This document shows, piece by piece, positions 1 to 5,206 of a DNA stretch of 5,206 nt. How positions within the stretch are numbered: the first letter of the stretch is position 1; each line of letters starts with the position of its first letter. Where the stretch lies: the IMG/VR virus record IMGVR_UViG_2740892423_000010, positions 1 to 5,206 of that record; one strand, 5' to 3'. This DNA comes from a virus. Lineage: Duplodnaviria; Heunggongvirae; Uroviricota; Caudoviricetes. The notes under the pieces are model-generated. The model had not been told where the DNA came from and made no database searches. It worked only from the letters and a program-made list of their open reading frames with translations. Both the position numbers and the translations under genes were made by a program.

Positions 1-87
1 CTCACTGAAGCTGAGAGCTTCTTCGCCTTCGGCAAGGCCTTCGAAGTATTCTTCGTAAGCCTTTTCCATGATTGTGTCGAAATCCAT
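1..87 (-). CDS. Partial small acidic hypothetical protein (start at 87, runs off left edge of window); translation begins MDFDTIMEKAYEEYFEGLAEGEEALSFSE
   Basis: Open frame on minus strand from ATG at 87..85 through position 1 with no stop. The ATG lies 1 nt after the upstream gene's TGA (TGATATG), suggesting coupled translation. Position matches a ydfB-like gene after ydfA in Qin-type prophages, but identity is not confirmed. Confidence 0.4.
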   Translation of the reverse strand, partial: MDFDTIMEKAYEEYFEGLAEGEEALSFSE

Positions 88-88
88 A

Positions 89-244
89 TCACTCGCCTGA
101 ATTTCTTTCCAGCCAGCGACGAGCGCCAGTTTCGGTTTTAAACGTTTTGCTTTTGGTATACGTCATCGCGGTGAATGTGCCGTCCTGGTTGGGAAACACG
201 CCGTATACCAGAGATTCGTTGTTGCCAAGATCGATAGTATCCAT
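89..244 (-). CDS. ydfA: Small phage protein, YdfA-like (51 aa: MDTIDLGNNESLVYGVFPNQDGTFTAMTYTKSKTFKTETGARRWLERNSGE)
   Basis: Minus-strand ORF ending with TGA at 91..89. I prefer the internal ATG at 244 because it is preceded by a GAGG Shine-Dalgarno about 5 nt upstream and gives a 51-aa product that matches my recollection of E. coli Qin-prophage YdfA. The ORF track's longer version starts at 322 (77 aa). Confidence 0.55.
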   Translation of the reverse strand: MDTIDLGNNESLVYGVFPNQDGTFTAMTYTKSKTFKTETGARRWLERNSGE

Positions 245-420
245 GTTGACCTCATTTCCCCTTAACGCCGGGGGAGCGGAACAAAAACCTGCTGCATAGT
301 TAAAGTTGAACCCTGCCGTCATGTTCTTACGCCTCGGGCTGGCTACTTATCCCCTGACCACTGCCTGGTAACTCGAGGTATTGCCCTGCGTTCTGTGGGG
401 CGGGGTGGGTTGGTGGAAAT

Positions 421-464
421 AATCTACAATTAAAAACTGTTTTGTGTCAACAGTTTTTAATTGT
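421..464 (-). promoter_or_regulatory. Operator-overlapping promoter for the ydfA-like operon: palindrome ACAATTAAAAACTGT-N9-ACAGTTTTTAATTGT (426..464) with minus-strand -35 TTGACA (450..445) and -10 TAGATT (426..421)
   Basis: Perfect 15-bp inverted repeat with 9-bp spacer read directly from sequence. On the minus strand the spacer contains a consensus TTGACA, followed 18 nt later by TAGATT. Near-identical to the palindrome at 1462..1500. Confidence 0.55.
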
Positions 465-473
465 TGGGCTGGG

Positions 474-501
474 TAAAAAAAACTCCCTCGAATGAGGGAG
501 T
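474..501 (-). terminator. Rho-independent terminator ending the repressor-antitoxin-toxin operon
   Basis: On the minus strand: GC-rich hairpin ACTCCCTC-ATTC-GAGGGAGT (501..482) followed by a run of 8 T (plus-strand A-run 475..482), placed 17 nt after the toxin stop at 518. Confidence 0.6.
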
Positions 502-517
502 ATGAAAATTGTTCAGT

Positions 518-805
518 TCAGATAGGGAAGGGAAATTGTCGGCGGGCATGCACAATATTTGCAATTTCAATGCTTGAAGCTGCTACTCGGTACAAAACGA
601 TATAATTAGGGTGAACCACAATTTCCCGCAAACCGGATACTCGATCACTTGGCGGATATAGATATGGATGCTCGGAGAGGGCTAAAACAGACGTTTCAAT
701 ACGTATTTTTAGTCTGCGTGCTGCAGGAATATTTTCCTTAGCAATATAGGCTACGATCTGACGCAAATCATCGCGAGCAGATGGTAGCCATAAAATGGGT
801 AACAT
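518..805 (-). CDS. parE: ParE/RelE-family type II toxin (95 aa)
   Basis: Translation has the ParE-like pattern (N-terminal DL..I..YI helix region, C-terminal YRV...I.I..I.HARR). Its ATG overlaps the upstream antitoxin stop by 1 nt (TAATG on minus strand), typical of toxin-antitoxin coupling. Confidence 0.88.
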   Translation of the reverse strand: MLPILWLPSARDDLRQIVAYIAKENIPAARRLKIRIETSVLALSEHPYLYPPSDRVSGLREIVVHPNYIVLYRVAASSIEIANIVHARRQFPFPI

Positions 806-996
806 TACTCGCTCCTGTTAGTTACAGCAATTTGAGCAATAAGATTTTCTATTTCAGCCATTACCTCGTCATGTGGAATTGAGGGACGAGGGTCTGCAAG
901 GCTTGACGCCACTTTAGCGCGCAACCATTCGTTGTAACTGTTTTCTTGTTCGGTAGTTTCGAATTCTGAAACTATCGGAGAAAGGGCTGTACTCAT
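805..996 (-). CDS. paaA: Small antitoxin, PaaA-like (ParE-associated antitoxin), 63 aa
   Basis: 63-aa ORF directly upstream of and overlapping the toxin start. Strong RBS (GAGGAG, about 7 nt spacing). N-terminal half (ALSP.VSEFET.EQENSYNEWLRAKVA.SLADPRP.IPHDEV) matches my recollection of PaaA2 from E. coli O157:H7; family assignment is not search-verified. Confidence 0.8.
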   Translation of the reverse strand: MSTALSPIVSEFETTEQENSYNEWLRAKVASSLADPRPSIPHDEVMAEIENLIAQIAVTNRSE

Positions 997-1023
997 GGCA
1001 TAACTCCTCTTCTTGTACAGTGG

Positions 1024-1425
1024 TCATGCCCGGCGGCTTTTTTGTGCCGCCAACCACCGGGCAATGGTTTCTTCCATTGATTTTTTCTTGTCTTTGATTT
1101 CTTGAAGCATTTTTTCTTGGTCTTCCTCTGGAAACGCACTAAAAGCCTGGAGCAGTTCGCGTTGGCGAGGGCCAATTTTCATCGTGTCAGGGGTGAAAAT
1201 TTGCTCCCCCTCTTCAGGAGGCAATAAAAACCAATGCAATGGATGCCCTGTAACCTCAACCAGTTTATCCAAACTTGAGGCTTTAGGTGTAGCCTTACCG
1301 CTGACCCATTGTTGAACAGTTTGTTGTGTCACACCAATTCTACGGGCCAGCTCAGCCTGGCTCCATCCAGTTTCCTGAAGAAGCTTGCTGATTCTGTACA
1401 TAGATACTTCTAGAGCGTTCATCAT
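1024..1425 (-). CDS. paaR: HTH XRE-family phage repressor, DicA/PaaR-type (CI analogue), 133 aa
   Basis: Helix-turn-helix motif (WSQAELARRIGVTQQTVQQWVSG) plus a C-terminal segment (ELLQAFSAFPEEDQEKMLQEI) resembling DicA-type repressors. Divergent from a Cro-like gene and co-oriented with the antitoxin/toxin. No SD before the ATG at 1425, but a TAAAAT -10 sits 6 nt upstream, suggesting a leaderless mRNA. Alternative in-frame start at 1401 (MYRISK...). Confidence 0.85.
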   Translation of the reverse strand: MMNALEVSMYRISKLLQETGWSQAELARRIGVTQQTVQQWVSGKATPKASSLDKLVEVTGHPLHWFLLPPEEGEQIFTPDTMKIGPRQRELLQAFSAFPEEDQEKMLQEIKDKKKSMEETIARWLAAQKSRRA

Positions 1426-1534
1426 TATTCAATTTTACAGGTAAATACTGTTAAAAGCATCACAATAAAAAACTGTTGATCGCGTACAGTTTTTTATTGT
1501 AGGCTTTGCCTGTAGTTTTTTAGAGGAGGGCAAA
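1426..1534. promoter_or_regulatory. Divergent immunity control region: operator palindrome ACAATAAAAAACTGT-N9-ACAGTTTTTTATTGT (1462..1500), candidate plus-strand promoter for the Cro-like gene (-35 TTGATC 1476..1481, -10 TAGGCT 1500..1505), candidate minus-strand repressor promoter (-10 TAAAAT = plus 1432..1437)
   Basis: Perfect 15-bp inverted repeat with 9-bp spacer read from sequence. Promoter hexamers are by-eye matches to sigma70 consensus. The plus-strand promoter and operator have the same geometry as the 421..464 unit. Strong RBS AGAGGAGGG (1522..1530) before the ATG at 1535. Possible degenerate half-site TGTAGTTTTTTAG at 1511..1523. Confidence 0.6.
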
Positions 1535-1807
1535 ATGCTAGATAGCACTCGCGAAAAAATTAGGCAGAAATACACTCAAGCTGAAATAGGTCGTTATATG
1601 GGGGTCGCTCAACAGACTGTTTGGCAATGGTTTAGCTTTGGTGTTCCCCCAAAGCAGGTAATTCCGTTATGTCAGCTAATGAAGTGGGAAGTTACCCCGC
1701 ATGAAATTCGCCCTGATATTTATCCTAACCCAACCGACGGGCTGCCTTGTGGAAATAAGTGTATGGCGAATGAATCTCTGGCGGTGAACAATGAAAATCA
1801 CCCCTGA
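1535..1807 (+). CDS. ydaS: Cro-like HTH regulator, YdaS family (90 aa)
   Basis: Strong RBS. HTH motif (AEIGRYMGVAQQTVWQW) followed by a VTPHEIRPDIYPNPTDG segment that I recognise as characteristic of YdaS-type Cro analogues. Divergent from the repressor gene. Confidence 0.85.
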   Translation: MLDSTREKIRQKYTQAEIGRYMGVAQQTVWQWFSFGVPPKQVIPLCQLMKWEVTPHEIRPDIYPNPTDGLPCGNKCMANESLAVNNENHP

Positions 1808-2342
1808 ACAGGTTCGTGAGGCTCTGGATGCCTGGGTATGCCGACCAGGAATGACACAGGAGCAGGCGACGATATTAATCACGGAAGCATTCTGGGCTCT
1901 GAAAAAACGCCCGAACATTGATGTTCAACGCGTCACGTTTGATGATGGCGCGGTTGATCAACGGGCGCTGGGCGTTAACCGGGTGAAGATATTCGAACGC
2001 TGGAAAGCTATCGACACCAGGGATAAGCGTGAAAAATTCACGGCGCTGATTCCGGCAATTATGGAGGCTATCCGGATCAGCGATTTCAGGTTGTATTGTG
2101 AAATTACTGACGGAAAAAGCATTACGTACATGATCGCCGGGTTAAACAAAGAATATGGCGATGTGGTGGAGTCCGGGCTGCTTTTTGCGGATCCAGCTGT
2201 TGTGGAACGTGAGACTGACGAGCTTATAGAAAAAGCTATTGCTTTCAAGCACGCGTATCGTCAGCAATACCAATATTACTTTGCAGATAAACAAATATCT
2301 GTCTGGGGTTCGTATGAGTATCGATGCACTACGATGGGCTAA
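1791..2342 (+). CDS. ydaT: YdaT-like protein (CII-analogue candidate), 183 aa
   Basis: ATG at 1791 overlaps the ydaS-like 3' end by 17 nt (coupled translation). Position immediately after a YdaS-type Cro matches the ydaS-ydaT pair of Rac/CP-933-type prophages. Family assignment rests on position and recalled similarity, not a search. Confidence 0.7.
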   Translation: MKITPEQVREALDAWVCRPGMTQEQATILITEAFWALKKRPNIDVQRVTFDDGAVDQRALGVNRVKIFERWKAIDTRDKREKFTALIPAIMEAIRISDFRLYCEITDGKSITYMIAGLNKEYGDVVESGLLFADPAVVERETDELIEKAIAFKHAYRQQYQYYFADKQISVWGSYEYRCTTMG

Positions 2343-3354
2343 AAAGGTGAAAACCGGCAGTTCATCCAGTAAGTCAGTATTGACCTGGCTTGCTGATATG
2401 TGCGGTGCCGATTTGTGTGCATACCCGTCTGTATCTGCCCTGGCAGAAGTAACGGAACTGAACAAAAAGACTGTGCAGGACAGCTTACGACACCTGATGG
2501 AGATTGGGTTAATTGTTGATACCGGTGAGAGAAAAGGCAGAACAAAGCAAATTGTGGTGTACCGACTTATCGGTGTAGAAGAAAGTGTTGCCGAGCCTGA
2601 ATACACCCAAAAACGGGAGTCTTTAAAGGTGGGTAAAATTGGTGCTGTTAATAAAAACAGTACCGAAAACGGTTATGTTTCAGCACAAAACAGACCCAAA
2701 AACGGAACTCTTAACTGCATGGAAAATAACCAAAGACACCCAAATTTTCCATTAAAGACACCCAAAAACGGATCACGGAACCCAAAGGAACCCAAAGATC
2801 TAAACCCCACACATAACGCACGCGAGAGTGCTCCGACCAGTGAGCAGGAAGTTTTGTCGTTACAGGCAGTGCCACCCGTATTCCTGGATGGCCTGAGCGA
2901 ACCCATCGGAAAATTTCCGATGACCGATAGCTGGCATCCGTCACGGGATTTTCGACGACGGGCTGCGTTGTGGGGGATGGCTTTGTCGGAGCCGGAATTT
3001 ACACCTGCTGAACTTGCCGCATTCCGGGATTACTGGAGCGATGAGGGCAAAGTGTTCACGCAGGTTCAGTGGGAGCAGAAATTCGCCCGTCACGTAAATC
3101 ACGTCAGGGCGCAGGTTAAACCAGTCAGCAAGGGGGTAAACCATGCAGCAGCACCAGGTGGCACCGCATCACGGGCAGTTCAGGAAATTCGGGCAGCACG
3201 TGAGCAGTGGGAACGTGAAAACGGATTTATCAGCGACGGAAACGGCGTGGAAGCTGTGGGAACTCATGGGGGAGGTTTATTCGAACCGCTGGACCCAGAA
3301 GAACGGGGCCGCACCTTCGAAGCTCTGGATTGCACAGATTGGCGCGATGACTGA
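2314..3354 (+). CDS. Replication initiator (lambda O functional analogue): N-terminal winged-helix domain plus C-terminal DnaT-like domain, 346 aa from ATG 2314
   Basis: N-terminus (LRWAKKV...SVSALAEVTELNKKTVQDSLRHLMEIGLI) resembles replication-initiator wHTH domains. C-terminal segment GKFPMTDSWHPSRDFRRRAALWGMALSEPEFTPAELAAFRDYWSDEGKVFTQVQWEQKFAR closely resembles the C-terminal region of E. coli primosomal protein DnaT as I recall it. The ORF track starts at a TTG (2239); I prefer ATG 2314, which has a GGGG SD-like element 5 nt upstream. Confidence 0.8.
   Translation: MSIDALRWAKKVKTGSSSSKSVLTWLADMCGADLCAYPSVSALAEVTELNKKTVQDSLRHLMEIGLIVDTGERKGRTKQIVVYRLIGVEESVAEPEYTQKRESLKVGKIGAVNKNSTENGYVSAQNRPKNGTLNCMENNQRHPNFPLKTPKNGSRNPKEPKDLNPTHNARESAPTSEQEVLSLQAVPPVFLDGLSEPIGKFPMTDSWHPSRDFRRRAALWGMALSEPEFTPAELAAFRDYWSDEGKVFTQVQWEQKFARHVNHVRAQVKPVSKGVNHAAAPGGTASRAVQEIRAAREQWERENGFISDGNGVEAVGTHGGGLFEPLDPEERGRTFEALDCTDWRDD
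2603..2799. repeat. Iteron-like direct repeats (consensus about GACACCCAAAAACGG) inside the initiator gene linker; candidate origin of replication
   Basis: Direct repeats read from sequence: ACACCCAAAAACGG 2603..2616, AGACCCAAAAACGG 2692..2705, GACACCCAAA 2735..2744, GACACCCAAAAACGG 2757..2771, GGAACCCAAAG 2778..2788 and 2788..2798, with a degenerate copy ACCGAAAACGG at 2662..2672. Several start-to-start spacings are about 22 bp or multiples. They encode a low-complexity PKNG-rich linker between the two protein domains. Confidence 0.5.
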
Positions 3355-3808
3355 GCAGCAAATCCGTCAGGTCTGCCGCCAGTGCATGGACCGCTGCCGG
3401 ACGGGTGAAACATGGCCTCCGGACCTGGCTGAGTTTGTGGCGCTGATTTCGGAGAGTGGGGCAAATCCATTTGGTCTGACGGTGGATGCTGTGATGGAGG
3501 AGTACCGCCGCTGGCGCAATGAGTCTTGGCGATACGACGGAAGTGATAAGTACCCGTGGTCTCAGCCTGTGCTGTATCACATTTGCCTCGAGATGCGTTC
3601 AAAGGGGATTGAGCGCCAGATGACCGAAGGGGAATTAAAACGGCTTGCAGAACGGCAACTGACGAAATGGGCAAAGCATGTTGGTAACGGACTGAGTGTT
3701 CCACCCGTCCGTAGGCAACTGGCAGCACCCATACGTCCTGCGGGACCAACGCCAATTGAGTTGCTGAAACAGGAATATGAACGCAGGAAAGCGGCTGGTT
3801 TTGTTTGA
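3143..3808 (+). CDS. Lambda P-like replication protein (helicase loader), 221 aa
   Basis: Strong SD (AGGGGG 3131..3136, 6 nt before ATG 3143). Translation ([14 protein letters not shown] ... [15 protein letters not shown] ... [10 protein letters not shown]) parallels lambda P as I recall it (PFLPSPGQFVAWCRE ... YPWKSNAHYWLVTNL ... ELRRKAADEL). Overlaps the 3' end of the initiator gene by 212 nt in a different frame. Confidence 0.8.
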
Positions 3809-3842
3809 GTTGAGAAGTAATTTTTACCGGGAGGAAATTTTA

Positions 3843-4613
3843 ATGGAAACCGTTTTTGATGCACTGAAAGCAATGGGAAAAGCCACGTCGGTGGAACTGG
3901 CCGCGCGACTTGATATCAGTCGTGAAGAAGTGCTGAACGAGCTGTGGGAACTCAAAAGAAATGGCGTCGTTGATAAAACAGGTCATACCTGGTTTCTGGC
4001 TGGTGAAGGTGAATCCGGGGTAACCGAAGAGCAGCCAGTACAATCTGAAGCACCGGATGTGCTAACCGGGGTGGGCGAACAAAAAGTTACCGCTGACATG
4101 ATGATTGAGTTTATCGGTCAGGAGGGGGCTAAAACGTGTGAGGAACTGGCGAGTAAGTTCGGTGTCAGCACTCGCAAGGTTGCTTCCACGCTGGCGGTAG
4201 TAACCGCAACGGGGAGGCTGGCACGCGTTAATCAGAACGGTAAATTTCGTTACTGCATACCGGGCGATAATTTACCAGCAGAACCGAAAGCCGCATTGGT
4301 AGCGGAAACTGATGGTAAATCCTTTCCTCAGCCAGCGGGGGTTGCGTTACCAGTACAGGAGGTTGCAACACAGGAAGATATTAAAACAGAAACTGTGGCG
4401 GACATTGTGCAGTCGTTGCCATCGTTCACTGAAACGCGAGCCAATGGCCTGATTTTACCATCTCTGCATATGGCAAACCGCGAACTTCGCCGGGCGAAAA
4501 GTCATGTCCAGAAGTGGGAGCGAGTCTGCGCCGCGCTGCGGGAGCTGAACAAGCACCGGGATATTGTCCGACAGATTGTCGATTCCTCCAGTCGTATTGT
4601 GTCGGAAAAGTGA
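3843..4613 (+). CDS. Hypothetical phage protein with two tandem winged-helix-like modules and a basic C-terminal helix, 257 aa
   Basis: Strong RBS (GGGAGG 3830..3835, 7 nt before ATG 3843); the ORF track's upstream ATG at 3777 has no usable SD and overlaps the P-like stop. Two internally similar wHTH-like segments ([30 protein letters not shown] and [30 protein letters not shown]). Function unknown. Confidence 0.7.
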
Positions 4614-4629
4614 TTCCAGGGGAGGGCTT

Positions 4630-5052
4630 ATGGCAAAAGTATCTACACAGGAAGAGCGGGAAAAAATTAAAGGGCAGGTTGTTGAACTCGTACGCCAGAG
4701 TGGGCGTGAGACGTTACGACAACTGGAAGCGAAAACAGGTGCGACAAGATATCTGATGAGCGTTCTCGCCAGAGAGCTGGTTGCCAGTGGCGATGTATAC
4801 AACTCTGGTTACGGGTTATTTCCGTCTGAACAGGCGCGTAAGGACTGGCAAAACGCCCGCAAAAAACTCTCAAGGGCAAAGGTGAAGAAAACGGCTGTGG
4901 TTGATCCGGACCTTATCAGGTCATTACCTGACGGAGAAATACGCCGCTACGACAGGCGTCAAAACATAATTTGCCGTGAGTGCCGGAAAAGCGAAGTTAT
5001 GCAGCGTGTACTGGCGTTTTATCGGGGAAACTTTCAGGAGGTGATGCTGTGA
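4630..5052 (+). CDS. Hypothetical phage protein with one winged-helix-like module, 141 aa
   Basis: Strong RBS (AGGGGAGGG 4618..4626) before ATG 4630; the ORF track's TTG at 4564 overlaps the previous gene. Segment ETLRQLEAKTGATRYLMSVLARELVASGDV resembles the wHTH modules of the upstream gene. Basic, Lys/Arg-rich C-terminal half. Confidence 0.65.
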   Translation: MAKVSTQEEREKIKGQVVELVRQSGRETLRQLEAKTGATRYLMSVLARELVASGDVYNSGYGLFPSEQARKDWQNARKKLSRAKVKKTAVVDPDLIRSLPDGEIRRYDRRQNIICRECRKSEVMQRVLAFYRGNFQEVML

Positions 5053-5206
5053 GCGAATCAAAATGTCAGGTTAATAGCAATCAGATAGAACCATGTGCGG
5101 TACTGGCAAAAGCCCTTGAGCATGATGCTGAATACACGACGCGAAAAGGTCTGCTGATATACAAAATCTGGAATGAGAGTTTAACTCGCGGCCCTGATTT
5201 GGTGAT
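5049..5206 (+). CDS. Partial hypothetical CDS (candidate GTG start at 5049, runs off right edge); VSESKCQVNSNQIEPCAVLAKALEHDAEYTTRKGLLIYKIWNESLTRGPDLV...
   Basis: Open frame to the window end. GTG overlaps the upstream stop (GTGA) and is preceded by AGGAGG (5036..5041). No family recognised. Confidence 0.3.
   Translation, partial: MSESKCQVNSNQIEPCAVLAKALEHDAEYTTRKGLLIYKIWNESLTRGPDLV

Follow-up and report, generated by a model that had tools for sequence, protein, structure and literature searches.

A lambdoid prophage of E. coli encodes a replication initiator with predicted winged-helix and DnaT-like domains whose gene overlaps that of its P-like helicase loader

We analysed a stretch of 5,206 nucleotides from a Caudoviricetes record of IMG/VR (IMGVR_UViG_2740892423_000010, positions 1 to 5,206), hereafter the window, and found that one of its genes encodes the protein that initiates replication in a lambdoid prophage of E. 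coli. As judged from sequence and structure models, its product really does join a winged-helix domain, called origin-binding in the original prediction, to a copy of the DnaT ssDNA-binding domain; this fusion layout is correct but not new. Some value beyond public annotation comes from the iterons of this phage form, from an initiator tail that tracks the type of helicase loader, and from the neighbouring gene, which encodes a P-like helicase loader and whose predicted start is at 3143, contrary to the annotated 3347. For the whole model we favour, with a probability of about 0.7, a lambda O-like initiator that carries a DnaT-like ssDNA-filament module and whose loader specificity is set by its tail. 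The initiator gene is divided as follows:

2314..3354, + strand: replication initiator CDS, 346 aa, comprising winged helix, linker, DnaT-like domain and tail (ORF list, PGAP, PHROG)
2314..2580, + strand: N-terminal winged-helix domain (aa 1-89), presumed to bind iterons (AF2, Foldseek, HTH_36, conservation)
2902..3114, + strand: DnaT-CTD-like three-helix ssDNA-binding domain (aa 197-267) (Pfam, NCBIfam, PDB, AF2, Foldseek)
3115..3354, + strand: C-terminal tail of the initiator (aa 268-346) (AF2, conserved among homologues)

The initiator ORF (2314-3354, +) begins with ATG and has boundaries identical to those of a PGAP CDS in E. coli ETEC1738. PGAP names its product "DnaT-like ssDNA-binding domain-containing protein" and that of the next gene "replication protein P", and PHROG 1032 'replication initiation protein' matches the initiator with E=1e-89. 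The early region runs in the order cI-like, Cro/YdaS-like, YdaT/CII-like, initiator and P-like. The winged helix plus DnaT-like layout is annotated in hundreds of E. coli genomes, and Brézellec et al. 2017 published it in a related pair of genes; the fusion itself therefore adds nothing beyond genome annotation (PGAP, Pfam, PHROG) and that paper.

The similarity to the DnaT domain is far beyond chance. Profile searches matched Pfam PF17948 'DnaT DNA-binding domain' to aa 201-267 (profile positions 1-63 of 69, E=1.2e-17, 63.8 bits against a gathering threshold of 25) and NCBIfam NF002770 'primosomal protein DnaT' to aa 194-278 (profile positions 82-166 of 179, E=7.6e-27), and a phmmer search of the PDB returned the DnaT chains 6aep, 9zbt, 4ou6, 4ou7 and 2ru8 at E=9e-20 to 2e-16, with 40 of 76 residues identical to E. 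coli DnaT 82-157. In the AF2 model aa 200-267 have a pLDDT of 78-89 and fold into a three-helix bundle that Foldseek superposed on 4ou6 (DnaT84-153) with a TM of 0.90-0.93, an rmsd of 0.8 Å and 56% identity, so the DnaT likeness first read by eye holds in both profile and structure comparisons. The motif quoted at that time is present at aa 199-259 (GKFPMTDSWHPSRDFRRRAALWGMALSEPEFTPAELAAFRDYWSDEGKVFTQVQWEQKFAR), nt 2908-3090, just upstream of 3143; the stretch was rightly assigned to DnaT, but it is not the C-terminus of the protein, as 79 residues (aa 268-346) follow it.

All six ssDNA-contact residues of DnaT, the mutation of which abolishes ssDNA binding (Liu 2014, PMC4132743), are kept: Y240, W241, K246, F248, K256 and R259 of the initiator correspond to Y127, W128, K133, F135, K143 and R146 of DnaT, and in 20 homologues only K246 varies (19 K, 1 R). 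According to Ducos 2026 (PMC13377028), a filament of the DnaT CTD assembles on ssDNA where the helicase is loaded, and 10 of the 14 filament-interface positions are identical in the window protein. Because the other four differ from DnaT (A236/S123, D239/A126, D243/A130 and T249/H136, window residue first), polymerisation may be weaker or different.

The AF2 model of the whole initiator has a mean pLDDT of 54.8 and is confident for the two folded domains only. The first of these, aa 1-89, was modelled as four helices followed by a beta hairpin (pLDDT 70-87), and its Foldseek matches were wHTH regulators and RepA_N plasmid initiators. HTH_36 (PF13730) matched the N-terminus weakly (20.8 bits, below the Pfam cut-off of 25), homologues at 54-58% identity carry precomputed PF13730 hits, and the PHROG 'replication initiation O-like' families 391, 678 and 345 matched the initiator with E=1e-11 to 3e-7. 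When aa 1-99 alone were searched by sequence against the PDB, a weak wHTH match was the sole result; Pfam Phage_rep_O (PF04492) did not match the initiator at E<=0.1, and the NCBIfam search returned no family for the N-terminal domain. The mean pairwise identity of this domain is 83% in seven lineages. Both halves of the claimed fusion are thereby supported (AF2, Foldseek, Pfam PF17948, NCBIfam and PDB matches).

The linker between the two domains is disordered, and the DNA encoding it is AT-rich and holds a repeat array:

2599..2800, no strand assigned: candidate origin, an AT-rich iteron array in linker-coding DNA (repeat families D1 and D2, GC)
2605..2616, + strand: iteron core copy 1, ACCCAAAAACGG (exact match)
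2694..2705, + strand: iteron core copy 2, ACCCAAAAACGG (exact match)
2760..2771, + strand: iteron core copy 3, ACCCAAAAACGG (exact match)
2732-2744 and 2784-2796: degenerate iteron copies

The GC content over 2600-2775 is 0.36-0.40. In three related loci (L003, L005 and L007), the iteron A(C/T)CCC(A/G)AAAACGG is restricted to the homologous gene, and the iterons are conserved in Klebsiella, Enterobacter and Salmonella relatives and confined to linker-coding DNA in four genera. The iterons and the AT-rich linker DNA fit an initiator of lambda O type with a predicted origin inside its own gene. Lambda O and P likewise show an N-terminal wHTH, an origin of iterons and AT-rich DNA in the linker-coding part and a loader gene immediately downstream. 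The form of the window iteron, CCC-AAAAAC-GG(G), resembles the lambda iteron, CCCTCAAAACGAGGG. The two initiators differ in their C-terminal domains, that of lambda O being Phg_2220_C (PF09524), for which Pfam gave no match in the window initiator, and that of the window being DnaT-like. They differ also in the overlap with P, which is 4 nt in lambda and 212 nt here:

3127..3133, + strand: Shine-Dalgarno AAGGGGG of the P-like gene (sequence)
3143..3808, + strand: P-like helicase loader CDS, 221 aa (PF06992, PHROG 109, conservation)
3143..3354, + strand: dual-coding overlap of 212 nt, read in frame 0 as the initiator tail and in frame +1 as the first 70 codons of the P-like gene

The P-like loader claimed to lie next door was confirmed by a match of PF06992 to aa 56-188 of the next gene product (E=1.8e-16, 60.8 bits against a cut-off of 26) and of PHROG 109 to aa 19-220. 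Residue 71 of the protein aligns to residue 82 of lambda P, from where the two are collinear. Public annotation starts the gene at 3347 and yields 153 aa. We rejected this PGAP start: the ATG and Shine-Dalgarno sequence at 3143 are conserved, an SD-like motif preceding the equivalent ATG in L003, L005, L007, L009 and L010, and the internal Met is missing in two lineages. Amino-acid conservation in the P frame and the third-position substitution pattern speak against an ORF open upstream of 3347 by chance, which was likewise rejected. So was the view of the initiator tail as meaningless read-through, its frame being open in 7/7 lineages with a conserved stop position. The AF2 model places a helix at aa 287-302 of the tail, followed by a disordered G/D/E-rich end. 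Among synonymous recodings of P, only 0.5-6.5% keep the initiator frame open, and both frames of the overlap are under selection in the seven lineages. The overlap was found in 75 of 76 close IMG/VR loci and in most of 181 more distant P-linked loci, and because of this conserved dual-coding arrangement the loader gene is systematically mis-started (153, 144, 105 or 181 aa rather than about 221). PHROG 15931 (482 positions) is matched by the initiator and by the P-like protein alike, in profile ranges that overlap; no support was found for an O-P fusion by frameshifting, P lying in the +1 frame with its own SD and ATG.

Related loci were sought with a 12-sequence alignment of the domain and four single-protein scans. 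Among 190 further IMG/VR loci, a P-like gene follows the DnaT-domain initiator in all 181 with a long tail, and a DnaC-like loader or none accompanies the 9 of 9 with a short tail; in clusters at 50% identity, P-like pairing was seen in 10/10 long-tail and 0/12 short-tail cases. Where the initiator terminates in the IPPGFRG peptide of DnaT, the loader is DnaC-like or lacking. By these comparisons, it is the initiator tail rather than the DnaT-like domain that tracks the type of helicase loader, and the DnaT C-terminal peptide tracks DnaC-type loading; the association of tail and loader could reflect simple linkage of neighbouring or overlapping DNA instead of physical interaction. In the literature, the phrases 'DnaT-like' and 'PPGFRG' were found in no searchable paper.

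It is a tentative idea, which we hold to be possible rather than likely, that the DnaT-derived elements at the C-terminus of phage initiators exist in two versions, each specific for its own type of loader. The version in the window would consist of the three-helix ssDNA domain and a tail of ~75 aa dual-coded with the P N-terminus, hard-wired to P-type loaders; the other would end in ...EPDxxIPPGFRG, which is precisely how host DnaT ends, whether or not the three-helix domain is there too, and would go with a DnaC-type or no phage loader. If the versions reflect function and not linkage, the IPPGFRG peptide would be the element by which DnaT and such initiators recruit DnaB-DnaC, and the host dnaT-dnaC operon would be an initiator-loader cassette domesticated from a phage. 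The tail-loader pattern offers a concrete peptide for a question that Ducos 2026 (PMC13377028) describes as unanswered, namely how DnaB-DnaC is recruited by the PriA-PriB-DnaT preprimosome.

The window initiator is not an orthologue of DnaT, because the N-terminal domain, the acidic linker and the C-terminal IPPGFRG peptide of DnaT are all absent. Its NF002770 score is 94.1 bits against an equivalog cut-off of 201 bits, and no part of aa 1-193 aligned to DnaT 1-81 (NF002770 profile, phmmer); these residues form the wHTH and disordered linker instead of the oligomerisation domain and acidic PriB-binding linker of DnaT (residues 1-83). The extreme C-terminal DnaT peptide, ...SEPDxxIPPGFRG, is absent from the end of the window protein. 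The window domain has the three-helix fold of E. coli DnaT (PDB 4OU6/4OU7, 2RU8, 6AEQ, 9ZBT/9ZBU), but its fusion partner is a wHTH and the gene that follows is P-like, where DnaT has dnaC. Of DnaT, the ssDNA-binding domain (residues 84-153) alone is present, so the proposal of a 'PriA/DnaT-type primosome element' claims more than the data carry, also as regards a part for PriA.

In the model that we favour, winged-helix dimers would bind the iterons within the initiator's own gene to form an O-some-like complex, and the flanking AT-rich DNA would open. The DnaT-like domains, concentrated by the flexible linkers, would then polymerise on the exposed single strand, just as the preprimosome's DnaT CTD polymerises on lagging-strand ssDNA, and the filament would keep the bubble from closing and designate the place of helicase loading. 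Recruitment by the initiator tail of the P-like protein bound to host DnaB would lead to loading of DnaB. The DnaT-like domain would be a generic ssDNA-filament module, with loader specificity residing in the tail, which the overlap would lock physically to the loader gene. For the window protein, we infer the binding of iterons, ssDNA and P as well as the formation of filaments.

The DnaT-like domain might instead act mainly as a protein-protein module, for self-oligomerisation of the initiator or docking of P-DnaB, with ssDNA binding incidental. Fragments of the DnaT CTD do self-associate, and the domain is said always to travel with a P-like gene; however, its basic and aromatic DNA-contact residues, invariant in 20 homologues, would be needless in a purely protein-binding role, and the domain occurs also with DnaC-like loaders and with no loader and is therefore not P-specific, which makes this explanation unlikely. 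Another partner to be considered is PriA, on whose HD2/CTD one DnaT CTD docks through a conserved hydrophobic interface in preprimosome structures. With a phage domain 53-57% identical to the DnaT CTD, this docking surface might be kept, and the initiator might bring host PriA to the phage origin, or titrate it away, and thereby couple replication of the phage to the restart primosome. It would have to do so without the DnaT N-terminal domain and the PriB-binding acidic linker, both absent (the NCBIfam match covers profile positions 82-166 only), and since the module is accompanied by its own P-like loader in 181 of 190 loci, a second loading route is not needed; we consider such hijacking quite improbable.

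The same identity to E. coli DnaT (53-57% over 70 aa) might suggest that one prophage recently captured host dnaT, giving an accidental chimera without adapted function. This was rejected on cluster counts, tree and conservation signature, and we give it next to no credence: of 135 domain-bearing clusters in a search of 1.84 billion representatives, 63 were of the long fusion type and only 20 DnaT-sized, and in a neighbour-joining tree the window domain grouped with the fusion proteins, outside the host DnaT clade. Klebsiella, Enterobacter, Salmonella and Yokenella moreover share the architecture, which bears a signature of purifying selection (0.28/0.22/0.55 at codon positions 1/2/3).

Among the closest known systems is the pair DopC/DopE, described from Cellvibrionales and Oceanospirillales (Brézellec et al. 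2017, Genome Biol Evol, PMC5509034). Its domain layout is the same: an HTH_36-type N-terminus and a DnaT C-terminal motif (PDB 2ru8), encoded directly upstream of a lambda-P-like gene (PF06992). DopCE are chromosomal and domesticated, without iterons or prophage context, and are thought no longer to act as an initiator, whereas the window gene belongs to the early region of a prophage (cI, Cro and CII-like flanks) and has iterons. Brézellec 2017 (PMC5509034) suggests that DnaT_C was substituted after domestication; the prophage setting and iterons of the window gene indicate that this domain was already in the phage ancestor. The presence of iterons in the phage form of HTH_36, DnaT_C and P assigns the DnaT-like domain to working phage initiators. 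A paper on the Stx-phage 'Eru' replicon (PMC8044961) makes no mention of DnaT, primosomal proteins, iterons or YdaU.

A further relative, 'YdaU, primosomal protein I' of Rac-SA53, places a mosaic boundary within the initiator:

2794, no strand assigned: mosaic junction (about aa 161), with the N-domain and iterons to the left and the DnaT-like module and P-like gene to the right

The Rac-SA53 match starts at query position 2794, and the BLASTP identity rises from nil to 87% at aa 161. Rac-SA53 YdaU thus shares the C-terminal module and the overlapping P-like gene, but its N-terminal domain is DUF1376 and the iteron A(C/T)CCC(A/G)AAAACGG is absent; the iterons co-vary with the type of N-terminal domain. 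The C-terminal module and P gene are joined to at least 3 N-terminal domain types, and DUF1376 in turn is found with the DnaT module and P in Rac-SA53, or, in the YdaU of K-12 Rac, without a DnaT domain and followed by the DnaC-like YdaV.

The DnaT-like motif that the original prediction had aligned by eye in the initiator (2314-3354) was borne out at residues 199-259 by four independent searches. A profile search matched residues 201-267 to PF17948, the DnaT DNA-binding domain (E=1.2e-17), and phmmer against the PDB retrieved E. coli and Salmonella DnaT chains (E about 1e-19, 40 of 76 residues identical). The NCBIfam DnaT equivalog aligned its positions 82-166 of 179 with residues 194-278 (E=7.6e-27), at 94 bits, far under the 201-bit orthologue cut-off. 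The AlphaFold2 model, built from an input alignment of 20 sequences, was confident in two folded parts only, a winged helix (residues 1-89, pLDDT 70-87) and a three-helix domain (residues 200-267, pLDDT 78-89); it leaves residues 90-195 disordered and places a helix (287-302) and a disordered acidic end beyond the DnaT-like domain. Foldseek superposed residues 200-267 on DnaT84-153 (4ou6) with an rmsd of 0.8 Å, a TM of 0.90-0.93 and 56% identity, and returned wHTH regulators and RepA_N plasmid initiators as neighbours of residues 1-89. The initiator is thus confirmed as a fusion of a winged helix and a DnaT-like domain. The "C-terminal 70 residues" of the prediction do resemble DnaT, but they do not form the C-terminus, since 79 residues follow the domain.

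Binding of ssDNA by DnaT is severely impaired by each of the substitutions Y127A, W128A, F135A, K133A, K143A and R146A (Liu et al. 2014, PMC4132743). All six counterparts (Y240, W241, F248, K246, K256 and R259) are present in the initiator and, with a single K-to-R exception, invariant across 20 homologues from five genera. Of 14 residues listed for contacts between protomers in the DnaT filament, 10 are identical in the initiator and 12-13 in most homologues. Divergence by codon position among seven lineages was 0.28/0.22/0.55, indicating ordinary purifying selection. Judged from its residues, the domain appears functional in ssDNA binding.

AT content within the gene peaks in the DNA that encodes the linker (2599-2800, GC 0.36-0.40), where an iteron is repeated:

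2605, 2694 and 2760: ACCCAAAAACGG, three exact copies, plus degenerate copies

The consensus is A(C/T)CCC(A/G)AAAACGG(G), frequently with short dyad arms (e.g. GATCCC-AAAAAC-GGGATC). Klebsiella, Enterobacter and Salmonella homologues carry it two to five times at the equivalent position, and no copy was found elsewhere in those 9-kb loci. Because the iterons lie there, the otherwise variable protein linker contains conserved "PKNG/PENG" repeats. From residue 161, the C-terminal half is 87% identical to the initiator of Rac-SA53, a Rac-type prophage with a DUF1376 N-terminus in which a search found no window-type iterons; the iteron array is followed directly by the recombination junction, at nt ~2794. 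N-domain and iterons therefore make up one exchangeable unit, as they do in lambda O/ori-lambda. The initiator carries a candidate origin within its own gene, which we infer to be active.

A lambda-O-like initiator, which would use its wHTH, DnaT-like domain and tail in turn, is the reading with the best support. The wHTH would bind the in-gene iterons, DnaT-like domains on ~100-residue flexible linkers would polymerise on the exposed strand of the AT-rich origin, and the tail would recruit P-DnaB. The polymerisation step has a precedent in the mature preprimosome, where filaments of the DnaT CTD on lagging-strand ssDNA mark the site of helicase loading, an arrangement termed DnaA-like (Ducos et al., PMC13377028). 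Directly observed for the initiator are its domains, conserved contact residues, iterons, overlap and co-occurrence statistics.

The original prediction also implied a PriA-type primosome element, by which the DnaT-like domain would tie the phage initiator to host PriA. Although the DnaT CTD docks on PriA, the initiator lacks the parts of DnaT that bind PriB and nothing in this analysis speaks for such a hijack, which we consider very unlikely. Apart from PriA, the predicted interpretation is supported, both fused domains having been found. DopC (HTH_36 + DnaT_C), encoded upstream of the P-like DopE, has been described as half of a domesticated lambdoid pair (Brézellec et al. 2017, PMC5509034), and the phage proteins are already labelled in PGAP, Pfam and PHROG ("replication initiation protein", "primosomal protein"), so the finding is right but already known. 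The DopC/DopE pair lacks iterons, unlike the window initiator.

In the lambda-O-like reading the tail would recruit the lambda-P-type loader, and the two are encoded by shared DNA. An out-of-frame overlap of 212-224 nt joins the initiator tail to the first ~70 codons of the P-like gene in the window (3143-3354) and in six related loci (L003, L005, L007, L009, L010 and L011).

Divergence at codon positions 1/2/3 in and around the overlap
Distal overlap, P frame: 0.18 / 0.17 / 0.48
Non-overlapping part of P, P frame: 0.25 / 0.18 / 0.57
Distal overlap, initiator frame: 0.48 / 0.16 / 0.18
Proximal overlap, initiator frame: 0.31 / 0.30 / 0.48
Proximal overlap, P frame: 0.31 / 0.47 / 0.33

Within the distal overlap, substitutions in the P frame follow the pattern of normal coding sequence and those in the initiator frame the inverse; within the proximal overlap it is the initiator frame, not the P frame, that has the coding pattern. 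Selection thus acts on each frame in its own half. When recoding was limited to changes synonymous in P, a stop-free initiator frame arose in only 0.5-6.5% of cases; the frame is open in 7/7 lineages, with the same end point. The overlap is present in 75 of 76 evaluable loci from the 80 closest in IMG/VR, and in most of 181 more distant loci. Divergence, open frame and prevalence together indicate that both genes really use this DNA, and the overlap makes the initiator C-terminal module and the loader an inseparable cassette.

In the PGAP annotation, "replication protein P" begins at 3347 (153 aa); among relatives, other callers give P-like products whose lengths vary from 105 to 223 aa. The P frame is open from 3140, and ATG 3143 is preceded by AAGGGGG. 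Pfam P and PHROG 109 align from residues 56 and 19, respectively, of the 3143-started protein, whose residue 71 aligns with lambda P residue 82, making the 221-aa product collinear with the 233-aa lambda P. In seven lineages an equivalent ATG and SD-like motif lie 212-224 nt upstream of the initiator stop and strong conservation of the P-frame sequence extends 5' of the PGAP start; in two, the Met used by PGAP is Leu. The evidence favours 3143 as the true start, and the public annotation thus truncates the loader as a consequence of the conserved overlap. PHROG 15931 (482 positions, function unknown) matched initiator residues 161-345 at positions 163-347 and P-like residues 4-221 at positions 281-482, so that both overlap frames map onto overlapping profile positions; gene calls that were mixed or fused probably went into building this family.

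When residues 194-280 were run with HMMER against the full set of 1.84 billion representatives, the domain was found in only 135 clusters, 63 of them long proteins that have it in their C-terminal half and 20 DnaT-sized. N-terminal Pfam partners in 70 long and mid-length clusters were HTH_36 (11), DUF1376 (6), DnaD_N (3), RP-C (2) and Phage_rep_O (1), besides T5orf172/MUG113 or HNH inserts. Five E. coli proteins (P0021, P0022, P0035, P0040 and P0109; C-terminal module 85-89% identical to that of the window protein) carry T5orf172 and MUG113 (GIY-YIG-like) ahead of DUF1376, suggesting a nuclease or homing-type insertion into the initiator gene. In a rough neighbour-joining domain tree (80 columns, without bootstrap support), the DnaT-sized proteins group in what is essentially a single clade nested within the fusions.

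Tails and loaders were surveyed in 190 evaluable IMG/VR loci from four further clades. About 70-79 residues and an overlapping P-like gene follow the domain in 181 loci, 20-29 residues and a non-overlapping DnaC-like gene in four, and a short tail with no loader in five. All short tails end (S/P)EPDxxIP(P/Q/T)GFRG, the extreme C-terminus of host DnaT, whose gene shares an operon with dnaC; the peptide is absent from the window initiator. ORFs ending EPDxxIPPGFRG-stop occur in 120 viral loci, 114 without the three-helix domain. Among 105 evaluable, a DnaC-like gene comes next in 42, a P-like gene in none, and no loader in 63, where LygF is directly next in 56. Lambdoid initiators with this ending include L012:3023-3988 (phage mEp460_ev081) and those of loci L215, L216, L230-L237 and L316-L435. 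By 50% full-length clusters, the P-like gene accompanies 10/10 long-tail versus 0/12 IPPGFRG clusters. K-12 Rac YdaU (DUF1376, no DnaT domain, DnaC-like YdaV next) fits this pattern. Neighbouring or overlapping DNA is co-inherited, so the association may reflect linkage as much as function; only tentatively do we suggest that DnaT-derived C-terminal elements of phage initiators exist in two loader-specific versions. The peptide is a possible lead to DnaB-DnaC recruitment by DnaT. We found no papers on iterons of this initiator type, on the conserved 212-nt dual-coding overlap and resulting P mis-annotation, or on a tail-loader correlation with the DnaT C-terminal peptide; unsearchable literature may hold some.

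Segment 2314-3808 occurs at >=80% coverage in 907 of 5,426 complete E. coli genomes (megablast), where PGAP annotates a "DnaT-like ssDNA-binding domain-containing protein" followed by "replication protein P", and the initiator is 98% identical to a database cluster of 1,917 sequences carrying PF17948. In a lambdoid E. coli prophage, the window corresponds to the early region:

518-805, minus: putative ParE/RelE-like toxin ORF, between putative OL site and repressor gene
805-996, minus: putative small antitoxin-like ORF, likewise between them
1024-1425, minus: cI-like HTH repressor
1535-1807: Cro/YdaS-like gene
1791-2342: YdaT/CII-like gene
2314-3354, plus: initiator
to 3808, plus: P-like gene
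3' of the P-like gene: DUF1627 gene, then DUF977/LygF gene

The toxin and antitoxin identities (518-996) are read from translations; a hairpin and T-run (476-502) lie immediately 3' of the toxin ORF. The 15-mer ACAGTTTTT(A/T)ATTGT has five matches in the window against 0.5 expected: two perfect inverted pairs (426-440/450-464; 1462-1476/1486-1500) and a degenerate copy (1437-1451), in stretches 426-464 and 1437-1500. These pairs are probably OL-/OR-type operators for the cI-like repressor, bracketing the toxin-antitoxin and repressor genes. As listed, the DUF1627 ORF (3777-4613) begins within the 3' end of the P-like gene; its alignment with PHROG 630, however, does not start until residue 23, which makes ATG 3843 the probable true start.
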